Shown here: positions 3,310 through 6,102 of the stretch, piece after piece
How the letters are laid out: each line of letters begins with the position of its first letter
Numbering within the stretch: the stretch's first letter is position 1
Virus record (IMG/VR): IMGVR_UViG_2690316099_000002
Location: 1 to 6,127 of that record
Reading direction: 5' to 3' (one strand)
Source of the DNA: a virus
Taxonomy: Duplodnaviria > Heunggongvirae > Uroviricota > Caudoviricetes
DNA: 6,127 nt
Position numbers and translations under genes: made by a program
The notes under the pieces: generated by a model
Told to the model about the DNA's origin: nothing
Databases searched by the model: none
The model's input: only the letters and a program-made list of their open reading frames with translations

Positions 3310-3811
3310 AATTCCATCCAGCTTTTTGTTGGTATTGCTGTCGATACGCAAGTTTGAAAGCAATGGCTTTTTCTATAAGTTCGTCAGTTTCACGATCCAC
3401 TACAGCTGGATCTGCAAAAAGCAGCCCGGACTCCACCACATCGCCATATTCTTTGTTTAACCCGGCGATCATGTACGTGATGCTTTTTCCGTCACTAATT
3501 TCACGATACAACCTGAAATCATTAATCCGGATAGCCTCCATAATTGCCGGAATCAGCGCCGTGAATTTTTTCCGCTTATCCCTGGTGTCGATAGCTTTCC
3601 AGCGTTCGAATATCTTCACCCGGTTAACGCCCAGCGCCCGTTGATCAACCTCGCCATCATTAAACGTGACGCGTTGAACATCGATGTTCGGGCGTTCTTT
3701 CAGAGCCCAGAATGCTTCCGTGATTAATATCGTCGCCTGCTCCTGTGTCATTCCTGGTCGGCACACCCAGGCATCCAGAGCCTCACAAACCTGTTCAGGG
3801 GTGATTTTCAT
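3290..3811 (-). CDS. YdaT-like protein (putative toxin YdaT family), 173 aa
   Basis: Sits directly downstream of the Cro-like gene, as ydaT follows ydaS in Rac-type prophages. ATG at 3809-3811 overlaps the DicC-like 3' end by 17 bp. Family assignment is from position and general sequence character, not a verified alignment. Confidence 0.65.
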   Translation of the reverse strand: MKITPEQVCEALDAWVCRPGMTQEQATILITEAFWALKERPNIDVQRVTFNDGEVDQRALGVNRVKIFERWKAIDTRDKRKKFTALIPAIMEAIRINDFRLYREISDGKSITYMIAGLNKEYGDVVESGLLFADPAVVDRETDELIEKAIAFKLAYRQQYQQKAGWNYEPSFC

Positions 3812-4022
3812 TGTTCAACCGCCCCGCCCGCTTCGTCTTACGATATTCGTCATAAACTTTGGGATCATACTGAAGCTCCCCGCCAGATGCCTCTTGCAGG
3901 CGCATCGCGCGACCTTCAGGAACCAGTTCCCCCCATTGAGAAACAGCAGATGGATCAACACCAGCAGCTTTCGCTACTTTGGCTTTCGTCCCATAAAAAT
4001 TAATTACGTCTGATTTAAACAT
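3795..4022 (-). CDS. dicC: DicC-like Cro-type regulator, about 75 aa
   Basis: The C-terminal two-thirds (GELVPEGRAMRLQEASGGELQYDPKVYDEYRKTKRAGRLNNENH) closely match my recollection of E. coli DicC. ATG at 4020-4022 preceded by GGAGGGG. The track's longer start at 4049 is a TTG lying inside the operator-like palindrome. Confidence 0.8.
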   Translation of the reverse strand: MFKSDVINFYGTKAKVAKAAGVDPSAVSQWGELVPEGRAMRLQEASGGELQYDPKVYDEYRKTKRAGRLNNENHP

Positions 4023-4034
4023 CACCCCTCCAAA

Positions 4035-4050
4035 ATTGAGTTTTCTCAAT
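4035..4050. promoter_or_regulatory. Operator-like inverted repeat ATTGAG-N4-CTCAAT in the dicC/dicA divergent promoter region
   Basis: Perfect 6-bp inverted half-sites with a TTTT spacer. A near-identical copy lies at 4568..4583. CTCAAG/TCAAGG half-site-like direct repeats follow at 4058..4080. Confidence 0.55.
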
Positions 4051-4099: not shown

Positions 4100-4507
4100 A
4101 TGAACGAGAAAACTTTAGGTCAACGAATTAGAGAAAGACGCAAACAGGTTGGTTTAAGTCAAAACGATTTAAGCAAAGCCGCTGGCGTATCTGGCTCATC
4201 AATTTCACTATGGGAAAGCGACCATACAGCCCCGCGTGGGCAAAATTTGCATCGCCTGGCTGAGGTATTGCAATGTTCACCAACTTGGATACTGTTTGGT
4301 GACGAGGATAAAACACCAGATCCACCAGTTGCACTCAACAGCGCCTTAGACTTATCGGAAGATGAGTTGGAGATGTTGCGATTGTATCGCGCACTTCCAA
4401 AATCAGAGCAGCAAGCACAAATCAGCGAACTCCGTGCCCGCGTTGAGAATTTTAATCGCCTATTCACCGAGCTACTAGAAGCTCGCAAACGTAACAAACA
4501 TCAGTAA
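4100..4507 (+). CDS. dicA: DicA-like XRE-family HTH repressor (CI-type), 135 aa
   Basis: N-terminal HTH (GQRIRERRKQVGLSQNDLSKAAGVSGSSISLWE) and the motif LQCSPTWILFGDEDK, plus a C-terminal segment SEQ...RARVENFNRLF.ELL.A, all close to my recollection of Qin DicA, which has the same length. No clear Shine-Dalgarno upstream of the ATG. Confidence 0.9.
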   Translation: MNEKTLGQRIRERRKQVGLSQNDLSKAAGVSGSSISLWESDHTAPRGQNLHRLAEVLQCSPTWILFGDEDKTPDPPVALNSALDLSEDELEMLRLYRALPKSEQQAQISELRARVENFNRLFTELLEARKRNKHQ

Positions 4508-4567: not shown

Positions 4568-4620
4568 ATTGAGTTTTCTCATTAAAAGCACTTGACCAAC
4601 AGTCATGAGAAAACTAAATT
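4568..4620 (+). promoter_or_regulatory. Second operator-like repeat (ATTGAGttttCTCATT, 4568..4583) with a candidate sigma70 promoter for the leftward operon
   Basis: The repeat matches the 4035..4050 site at 15 of 16 positions. It is followed by a -35-like TTGACC (4592-4597), a 17-bp spacer and a -10-like TAAATT (4615-4620). Confidence 0.45.
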
Positions 4621-4696: not shown

Positions 4697-4849
4697 ATGG
4701 ATACTATCGATCTTGGTAACAACGAATCTCTGGTGTACGGCGTGTTTCCCAACCAGGACGGCACATTCACCGCGATGACGTATACCAAAAGCAAAACGTT
4801 TAAAACCGAAGCTGGCGCGCATCGCTGGTTAGCAAGAAACTCTGACTGA
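4697..4849 (+). CDS. ydfA: YdfA-like small protein (DUF1391), 50 aa
   Basis: ATG at 4697 preceded by GAGG. Size and position (first gene after dicA, same strand) match ydfA of Qin. The longer track ORF from 4592 has no RBS and includes the promoter region. Confidence 0.65.
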   Translation: MDTIDLGNNESLVYGVFPNQDGTFTAMTYTKSKTFKTEAGAHRWLARNSD

Positions 4850-4860
4850 TGAGGTTGACG

Positions 4861-5499
4861 ATGGAATTTAAAGATTTACCTACTTCAATCCAGGAGATTG
4901 CAGCACACACACTTCGTCATCGTCTGAACGAACTTGCATTGGAATCGGTAACGAAAAAAGACACTGATAATATGGCTCGTAATGTGCGCGATGCGTTTAC
5001 CGGATTGTATTTCTGTGCGTCTGTAAATAAACACGACTCAGATAGTGTGGCAAATAAAATTGCAGAAACGACAGCGCAAAACATCAATACGAAACCAACG
5101 GAAGAAGAAATTGATCAGTTTGCTCATGATGCTGGTTTAAAAAACAAGAAAGAAAAATCGCCATATGCGGGGAACATGTTTGTTTATGACAATCTCATCA
5201 GAATTCGTGGCGAAATTCCGGCGGAATACCTGGCAAGAGTCCATCAGGCATTGCTTAAAAATCTGGAAACAGAATTATTTGATGGCAACACTAACGGTTT
5301 CTTCATGGTATCAGGCCTTGAGAAAGACTGGGATGCAGAAAAACGCTGGAATGTTGCCACATGGTTATTCAGTAACAGAGCCGCTGCCCTGGAAGCTTCG
5401 GCATGTATTTGCGGCCTGTTCTTAACAGACCACAAATATAATCTGGATGTGTACAGTTATATTTACGCTGAACACGGTCCGCTCTGGATTGACTGGTAA
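4861..5499 (+). CDS. Hypothetical protein, 212 aa, in an AT-rich insert (candidate moron)
   Basis: ATG at 4861 preceded by GAGG with about 7 nt spacing. The track's start at 4849 overlaps the ydfA stop (ATGA) and is an alternative. Visibly lower GC than the replication module. No recognisable family. Confidence 0.7.
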   Translation: MEFKDLPTSIQEIAAHTLRHRLNELALESVTKKDTDNMARNVRDAFTGLYFCASVNKHDSDSVANKIAETTAQNINTKPTEEEIDQFAHDAGLKNKKEKSPYAGNMFVYDNLIRIRGEIPAEYLARVHQALLKNLETELFDGNTNGFFMVSGLEKDWDAEKRWNVATWLFSNRAAALEASACICGLFLTDHKYNLDVYSYIYAEHGPLWIDW

Positions 5500-5709
5500 T
5501 TATAAGGAAACACCAGCAGGGCCGAGGCGACCAACTGAACGATTAAAATCAATAATGCCATTATAAAGGACATTATTTAATTTATCGTCGAATGCTGATT
5601 CTGTGAGCCTCAACTCTGAATGAGTTTTTAATAACCCTGATTGCCTGAGTTGATTTACCAGGCATTCAATCTGTTTTTCAATAAGCGGATTTCTTTTTTT
5701 GTTTGGCAT
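5500..5709 (-). CDS. Hypothetical small basic protein, 69 aa, convergent with the 212-aa ORF
   Basis: ATG at 5707-5709 preceded by GGAGGA at 4-5 nt. Very AT-rich. Its stop is immediately adjacent to the stop of the plus-strand 212-aa ORF (5497-5499 / 5500-5502). Basic N-terminus (MPNKKRNPLIEKQ) suggests possible nucleic-acid binding. Confidence 0.55.
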   Translation of the reverse strand: MPNKKRNPLIEKQIECLVNQLRQSGLLKTHSELRLTESAFDDKLNNVLYNGIIDFNRSVGRLGPAGVSL

Positions 5710-6044
5710 TTTATCCTCCATTGAGGTTCTGGGTTAAAAATGGAGACCAACACGCTGCCACGTGTGGTCGTGCGCCGGACACGGATAAGAATCCGGTACT
5801 GACAGTTTACTGAAAGGATATATCCCTGAAAAGCCAGGGCATAACGCGAAAGCGCACGGCGAAGTTCGTCTCACTGTACGGTGTCGTTAAATTTAATTCG
5901 ACCGTGCGCTTCCGGTTGTGGCACTCCGCGAAATGGCGCGGCGGTAAGTATGGCGGGGTTATTCCTCCCCCATTGAGACACCGGGTTGCCAGGTTGACCA
6001 TACGCTTAAGTGACAACCCCGCTGCAACGCCCTCTGTTATCAAT

Positions 6045-6097
6045 TTTCTGGTGACGTTTGGTGGTATCAGTTTTACTCCGTGACTGCTCTGCTGCCC
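6045..6097 (+). ncRNA. dicF: DicF-like antisense sRNA (ftsZ-targeting cell-division inhibitor RNA)
   Basis: TTTCTGGTGACGTTTGGTGGTATCAGTTTTACTCCGTGACTGCTCTGCTGCCC matches the roughly 53-nt E. coli DicF sequence as I recall it, apart from two C-to-T changes in the terminal stem. It is followed by TTTTT. Confidence 0.7.
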
Positions 6098-6102
6098 TTT
6101 TT
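6058..6102 (+). terminator. Intrinsic terminator forming the DicF 3' end
   Basis: GGTGGTA (6060-6066) can pair with TGCTGCC (6090-6096) using G-U wobbles, with inner CAG/CTG pairing, followed by a T5 run at 6098-6102. Confidence 0.55.

Follow-up and report, generated by a model that had tools for sequence, protein, structure and literature searches.

The DNA analysed here, a stretch of 6,127 bases that we call the window, holds a genuine and ordinary dicF gene, as judged from its sequence, with all those defining features of DicF that can be checked here at the level of sequence. It is very probable that this gene encodes a DicF predicted to be functional, carrying two tolerated, probably near-neutral wobble substitutions in the terminator stem with at most quantitative effects. 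DicF is an sRNA already known, and the sequence of the present allele, which we term U18/U49, already exists, unannotated, in 24 public complete-genome records; a description of the allele was not found in the DicF papers examined, and none of the papers found for DicF together with enterotoxigenic E. coli names DicF in its title or abstract.

The DicF allele and its terminator hairpin

A covariance-model match to the DicF family (RF00039) lies at 6046-6097 on the plus strand, within the last 83 bases of the window; it scores 66.9 bits (E 1.5e-13) against a gathering score of 48 bits, covers model positions 1-52 of 52 without truncation, and represents the sole Rfam family in the 6,127 bases. 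No non-canonical pairs were flagged in the alignment, and K-12 dicF scores 76.7 bits against the same model. The match bears out the identity that the initial annotation had proposed. In a base-by-base comparison with the annotated K-12 ncRNA dicF (b1574, NC_000913.3 1649382-1649434), the window RNA was identical at 51 of 53 nucleotides and differed at exactly two, C18 and C49, each of which is T in the window (Table 1). By these changes GGCGG becomes GGTGG in the 5' arm and CCGCC becomes CTGCC in the 3' arm, just as the initial annotation had stated; both fall in the terminator stem and neither in the loop, and nt 23-48 have the K-12 sequence. The span 6045-6102 comprises the 53-nt RNA and its TTTTT tail. 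In length, hairpin topology, loop, 5' single-stranded region and TTTTT tail the RNA resembles the DicF of the K-12 Qin prophage, from which it differs in that two G·U pairs stand in tandem in the outer stem, with the loss of stability that this entails.

Table 1. Features of the window around dicF (window positions; nt, nucleotides of DicF)
Feature	Position	Strand	Basis
P22 Cro-like regulator, in the DicC position	3795..4049	-	Pfam P22_Cro 1.4e-17
DicA-like HTH repressor, 135 aa, 56% identical to K-12 DicA	4100..4507	+	Pfam HTH_3 1.2e-16; BLASTP 2e-51
Promoter-like site homologous to K-12 dicBp	4592..4620	+	Consensus scan; alignment of the K-12 dicA-ydfA intergenic region
ydfA-like gene (DUF1391), first gene of a dicBF-type operon	4697..4849	+	phrog_751; K-12 ydfA alignment; annotation of near-identical locus
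212-aa protein, in the ydfB/ydfC position, hypothetical in relatives	4861..5499	+	phrog_2151 5e-145
69-aa protein, opposite strand, between the operon genes and dicF	5500..5709	-	phrog_4274 1e-50; annotated in relatives
Non-coding leader/precursor (~275 nt), homologous to the K-12 ydfC 3'UTR	5770..6044	+	K-12 alignment
Mature 53-nt DicF sRNA, rare allele U18/U49	6045..6097	+	RF00039 full-length; 51/53 nt as in K-12
Terminator hairpin: outer stem nt 16-22/46-52, inner stem nt 24-28/38-42, loop nt 29-37	6060..6096	+	MFE and centroid structure, as in K-12
C18U, C18-G50 to U·G in the outer terminator stem	6062	+	K-12 comparison; fold
Loop nt 32-36 (CUCCG), tested ftsZ contacts, unchanged	6076..6080	+	Primers of PMC5069750; K-12 identity
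C49U, G19-C49 to G·U in the outer terminator stem	6093	+	K-12 comparison; fold
U-tract TTTTT of the intrinsic terminator, as in K-12	6098..6102	+	Sequence

C18U and C49U hit adjacent stem pairs and generate the tandem G·U 5'-U18 G19-3' over 3'-G50 U49-5'. The initial annotation had stated that both changes convert a G-C pair into a G-U wobble and leave the hairpin in place, which is what we found (U18·G50 and G19·U49); the changes that it called paired lie in adjacent pairs, and the two altered bases do not pair with each other. We therefore rejected compensatory covariation, C18U and C49U being independent wobble substitutions in neighbouring pairs. A quasi-palindrome templated mutation was rejected by inspection, since it would alter the partner G50 and not the neighbouring pair. 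Because a G·U on the plus strand corresponds to an A·C mismatch on the minus strand, the pattern would at least fit constraint acting on the plus-strand RNA.

Folding with ViennaRNA gave the same MFE and centroid structures for all four allele combinations, the energies of the 58-nt RNA being -15.9 kcal/mol for the K-12 allele (C18/C49), -14.0 kcal/mol for U18 only, -13.7 kcal/mol for U49 only and -11.1 kcal/mol for the window allele (U18/U49). As had been expected of a fold of both variants, the hairpin was thus kept but weakened, here by 4.8 kcal/mol (~30%) relative to K-12; for the hairpin only (nt 16-52) the values were -15.1 kcal/mol in K-12 vs -10.3 kcal/mol in the window. Pair probabilities in the outer stem of the window allele were 0.90-0.95, and a two-tier hairpin (7 + 4-5 bp) with all pairs canonical, followed by the U-tract, is present in the window DicF. 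The window allele has the weakest fold among the 11 natural alleles compared, with the other alleles ranging from -12.4 to -18.5 kcal/mol, and its fold energy is not distinguishable from that of shuffled sequence (z = -0.68). A simple terminator scan made no call at the DicF hairpin; the loop rule of that scan leaves out two-tier stems.

From these models, the U18/U49 allele may terminate less efficiently than that of K-12, and both termination and production of the 53-nt form could be substantially impaired. The strength of the terminator hairpin of Hfq-binding sRNAs is, however, tuned and not maximised (Morita et al., PMC5558911), and over-stable terminator hairpins can lower the amount of functional Hfq-binding sRNA (PMC5558911), so that a weaker stem is not necessarily a loss of function. 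The terminators of such sRNAs typically have at least 7 T in the U-tract (PMC5558911), in contrast to the 5 T found in DicF of both the window and K-12.

The dicF locus and DicF biogenesis

The window corresponds to part of a lambdoid prophage, namely its immunity, replication and early-left region, and, besides the genes of Table 1, encodes DUF4752, DUF4406 and DUF977 proteins, DnaC/IstB-like ATPases, an O-like replication initiator and a YdaT-family protein. As in the K-12 Qin prophage, dicF is located between a DicA/DicC-type immunity region and dicB; in contrast to Qin, the 212-aa and the reverse 69-aa ORFs replace ydfB/ydfC, and the prophage of the relatives adjoins potC and not the Qin site. 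In the dicBp-like site the -35 element CACTTGACC is conserved relative to K-12, and the operator and the -10 have diverged. No Pfam match was found for the 212-aa protein. The 69-aa gene, which has a promoter-like site at 5737-5708 on the minus strand, stands antisense before dicF, so that a transcript from the dicBp-like promoter must cross a convergent gene if DicF is made as in K-12. Replacement of ydfB and ydfC notwithstanding, the dicF leader is conserved from about 5770 on.

The 53-nt DicF is produced by early Rho-independent termination and RNase E cleavage, and a 72-nt form by RNase III processing of read-through RNA, the terminated ydfABC-dicF transcript being 1,146 nt and the read-through ydfABC-dicFB-ydfD transcript 1,608 nt long (PMC9438474, PMC10448788). 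Early Rho-independent termination within an operon followed by 5' processing is shared with SroC-type 3'UTR/intra-operonic Hfq sRNAs (PMC9438474); these are unrelated to DicF in sequence and have other targets, so the likeness is one of biogenesis and not of family membership. In the window, 55 nt on the 5' side of DicF nt 1 and 23 nt beyond nt 53 are identical to K-12, which leaves the RNase E context and the U-tract unchanged, and we infer that the ~190-nt RNase III precursor would start at about 5912. The RNase III 3' arm and dicB fall beyond the window end; in loci 99.8-100% identical to the window, dicB is intact 174 nt downstream of dicF, at the K-12 spacing.

When the ~195-nt precursor was folded, positions 5940-5959 (GGCGGUAAGUAUGGCGGGGU) formed a helix of ~20 bp with DicF nt 31-52 (6075-6096). 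GGCGGUAAGUAUGGCGGGGU shares GGCGGUA with the 5' arm of DicF, the helix competes with the terminator hairpin in K-12-like as well as window sequences, and C49U would likewise be a G·U within it. In this fold the terminator hairpin lies 3.7 kcal/mol above the MFE for the window and 2.6 kcal/mol for the K-12-like sequence. We did not adopt this candidate helix as an 'antiterminator': 68 unique precursors showed no covariation between its arms, and a few upstream changes would break it.

Several further features of the region were noted. A 59-aa ORF with a GTG start (5904-6083, plus strand; partial match to phrog_8854, 1.2e-12) overlaps the DicF precursor and DicF, and a 'hypothetical protein' is annotated across dicF in several phage records; such ORFs look like a family of false gene predictions at a locus that encodes a non-coding RNA. 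At the other end of the window, a DnaC/IstB-like helicase-loader gene shows a tandem partial duplication (1063-1362 and 1588-1887) in 300-nt copies that are 77% identical and 525 nt apart. The two minus-strand ORFs concerned (1066-1587 and 1591-2337) both match Pfam IstB_IS21 and Bac_DnaA, the shorter one (173 aa) being without the N-terminal part. The closest complete genomes have one helicase-loader copy only, and for this reason ~5% of the window is not covered by them.

Pairing with ftsZ and manX

DicF silences ftsZ and so stops cell division. Its Hfq-dependent repression of ftsZ translation, and the filamentation that follows its overexpression, have been documented in K-12, and it is the 3' region of DicF that pairs with ftsZ (PMC5069750). 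According to the mutagenic primers in the supplement of Balasubramanian et al. 2016 (PMC5069750), dicF9 changes nt 32-34 and dicF21 nt 30-32; dicF23 affects G36, and a compensatory mutation in ftsZ rescues it; dicF3, at nt 6-8, leaves ftsZ repression unaffected (PMC5069750). Since nt 18 and nt 49 are outside all four mutated sites, the window retains every ftsZ contact that has been tested by experiment, and its mutationally validated nt 30-36 are as in K-12.

Above-chance complementarity was found between DicF nt 25-53 and ftsZ -28..-1. Paired with ftsZ -45..+10, DicF nt 25-53 gave -27.8 kcal/mol, a value reached by 7 of 1,000 shuffles, and the DicF 5' half had no complementarity to ftsZ beyond chance in the same kind of comparison (shuffles, z = -0.03). 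Nucleotide 49 faces ftsZ G-25; C49U turns this pair into a G·U and changes the energy from -27.8 to -26.1 kcal/mol, a cost of 1.7 kcal/mol, and no substitution at nt 49 other than C-to-U leaves this base able to pair both with G19 and with ftsZ G-25. Thus, the earlier view that the ftsZ-pairing region is unchanged is correct for the tested contact bases nt 30-36, but the pairing extends beyond the loop and includes nt 49, now in a G·U. A full-length DicF-ftsZ duplex (RNAduplex, nt 5-52 with -28..+25) had suggested the gain of a U18-A(+12) pair and was dropped, the 5' half being at chance level; the full-length duplex as a whole was near chance (-39.7 kcal/mol vs a shuffle mean of -34.0, sd 4.4 kcal/mol).

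The ftsZ leader of the carrier strain E8 is identical to that of K-12 from -80 to +37; the target shows no co-evolution. In a co-fold model, an equilibrium calculation only, net binding to the ftsZ leader was -19.0 kcal/mol for the window allele vs -13.1 kcal/mol for K-12, because the variant has less self-structure to open; the gain is ~3 kcal/mol if the chance-level pairing of the 5' half is ignored. As for manX, the documented site is a 3' 18-nt site that pairs with the DicF 3' end (PMC5861419). The base opposite nt 49 in this site is a U, with which neither C nor U pairs, and C49U is therefore neutral there. A full-length DicF-manX duplex (-52.3 kcal/mol) was set aside, since the documented site comprises the 3' 18 nt only (PMC5861419).

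We propose the following course of events for the U18/U49 allele, whose expression, processing, target repression and altered termination are all projected from homology and models. Once the DicA-like repressor of the prophage is lifted, transcription would start at the dicBp-like promoter, as homology with K-12 suggests, and, assuming co-transcription, would continue through ydfA and the gene for the 212-aa protein as far as the conserved leader. At the DicF hairpin and U-tract some of the transcription would end, and the remainder would read through into dicB. RNase E cleavage at the unchanged site would free the 53-nt RNA, whose loop and 3' half would pair with the ribosome-binding region of ftsZ and block translation; DicF would also pair with manX, pykA and xylR. 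The two C-to-U transitions keep every hairpin pair and, for nt 49, the pair with ftsZ G-25. Small quantitative effects are likely: termination may be somewhat leakier, giving more read-through into dicB and less DicF that ends at the hairpin, and the stem may open with greater ease. From a hairpin weaker by 4.8 kcal/mol we infer a modest shift towards read-through.

Distribution and origin of the allele

We surveyed 20,395 records of complete E. coli genomes (chromosomes and plasmids), 4,021 of which carry dicF, and counted alleles as exact 58-nt matches. The canonical K-12 dicF was found in 3,055 records, the U18/U49 allele in 24 of the 4,021 dicF-bearing records (~0.6%), U49 only in 18, and U18 only in none of the 4,021. 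Counted by genome, at least one dicF copy is present in 4,011 of 5,426 complete genomes, some of which have up to 7; for EHEC strains, up to four copies have been reported (PMC7873438). In several strains, E8, E54 and AST85 among them, the U18/U49 allele is the only dicF copy. The double change was absent from 22 dicF-bearing phage records, from the 120 IMG/VR loci sampled and from five dicF matches among species-representative genomes. Over the last 828 bases of the window, all 24 U18/U49 records match it at 99.8-100% identity, and the host is human in all 23 with a listed host. Other low-frequency dicF alleles have real stem mismatches (G16A, G50A).

Annotation of the gene is sparse: among the records listed, dicF is annotated in the K-12 MG1655 record and in one phage record, Tritos, and in none of the non-K-12 RefSeq records. 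A near-identical E. coli-type dicF is also present in a 2.5-kb actinobacterial contig of a Collinsella sp. MAG (JAIIUG010000151.1) and in the 254-kb record of Aeromonas phage AP1 (MT713136.1, 249916-249973), and both most likely reflect contamination or mis-binning.

We inspected five variant loci (AST85, 503025, E200086, E8 and ATCC 43896), all in lambdoid prophages of human isolates; the prophage adjoins potC, with xis, int and then potC/potD in the four of five loci fetched far enough. All five have in common an early-left module consisting of DUF1391 (ydfA-like), the 212-aa gene, the reverse 69-aa gene, dicF, dicB, DUF1482 and an exonuclease, which is joined to four immunity regions, with a 135-aa DicA-like repressor, a 214-aa HTH protein, RacR or a LexA-family protein; the replication modules differ among the five as well. 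The five potC-adjacent prophages offer a clear view of lambdoid module exchange at one integration site. Since one early-left module occurs with four immunity regions, the allele is older than the module shuffling and has been kept through it.

An early-left module like that of the window, with a canonical-stem dicF, is found in ETEC E24377A, in EHEC/STEC prophages and in PPompW-type phages, where this module (ydfA/212-aa/69-aa reverse/dicF/dicB) is 96-98% identical to the window over 828 nt; the dicF of E24377A has C18 and C49 as in K-12, plus A10G. Between the window and the nearest non-variant haplotype, that of the E24377A type, there are 16 differences in 828 positions (1.9%), 13 of them outside DicF, and intermediates on the window haplotype were not found among the complete E. 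coli records. The U49-only allele shares the C49U wobble with the window and keeps C18; among the matches listed, its records are from pigs and comprise porcine ETEC and O139:H1 strains. Its haplotype was examined in one record, K_EC180 (NZ_CP062203.1, 2501-2558), where the allele resides on a K-12-Qin-like haplotype with ydfABC and has K-12 flanks on both sides. Going by these haplotypes, C49U most likely arose twice, independently. Both mutated cytosines, C18 and C49, are in CpG context.

Ordinary divergence, together with a tolerance for wobbles, accounts fully for both changes. At the flank rate of the E24377A-type comparison (13 differences in 775 nt), 0.89 differences are expected in 53 nt, and the Poisson probability of two or more is P(>=2) = 0.22. 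When all single substitutions in the 53-nt RNA were enumerated, two random transitions left all pairs canonical with P = 0.66, and, if both fell in the stem, kept pairing with P = 0.34. Pair-preserving transitions are thus common by chance, and the pattern alone is not evidence of selection.

These figures bear directly on the idea that the weaker hairpin was selected, either because it shifts the DicF:DicB ratio through dicB read-through or because it frees the 3' arm for ftsZ. We regard such adaptive tuning as improbable. It would fit with the hairpin being the weakest among the sampled alleles, with the more favourable net binding to the ftsZ leader in the co-fold model, with retention of the allele across four immunity-module backgrounds and with the appearance of C49U on two haplotypes, which suggests recurrence that selection at nt 49 could underlie, C-to-U alone retaining pairing with both G19 and ftsZ G-25 at this position. 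However, two differences in 53 nt are in line with the flank divergence, pair-preserving transition pairs are expected by chance at the probabilities given above, the allele is confined to 24 of 4,021 records vs 3,055 with the canonical sequence, and all 24 copies sit on one haplotype and so represent a single evolutionary event. The apparent U18-A(+12) gain, moreover, concerns a part of DicF that is no more complementary to ftsZ than chance would give and that, as the DicF3 mutant shows, ftsZ repression does not require (PMC5069750).

A reading as decay, in which dicF is slightly broken under relaxed selection, yields too little stable 53-nt RNA and is heading towards a pseudogene, we hold to be less probable still. 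The ~30% loss of stability, the z-score against shuffles, which becomes non-significant, and the less favoured terminator hairpin in the precursor fold (3.7 vs 2.6 kcal/mol above the MFE) all point that way, and the G16A and G50A alleles show that the stem is not absolutely protected. Against this, all pairs are canonical and the hairpin is still both the MFE and the centroid structure with high pair probabilities; the loop, RNase E context, U-tract and downstream dicB are intact, the surrounding prophage retains int, xis and intact early genes, and weaker is not simply worse where an over-stable hairpin can itself leave less functional Hfq-binding sRNA (PMC5558911). That both changes are C-to-T could have hinted at a sequencing or assembly artefact in the window, to which we assign a negligible probability: 24 complete E. 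coli records, each assembled independently, contain an identical 138-nt stretch, and those inspected come from Japan, India, Mali and Bangladesh; a sequencing artefact is excluded on this ground. In summary, a probably functional DicF with two tolerated substitutions, most probably close to neutral, accounts best for the window.

Beyond annotation the finding has little importance; it shows that the window carries a standard DicF gene. The effect of stem stability on terminated DicF versus dicB read-through was not addressed in the dicBF literature examined, and the natural series CC, CU and UU allows one to ask how the stability of the terminator stem sets the ratio of DicF to dicB read-through. 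Since the U18/U49 allele is the sole dicF copy in several human isolates, any defect or gain that it may bring would apply to the whole DicF output of the strain.
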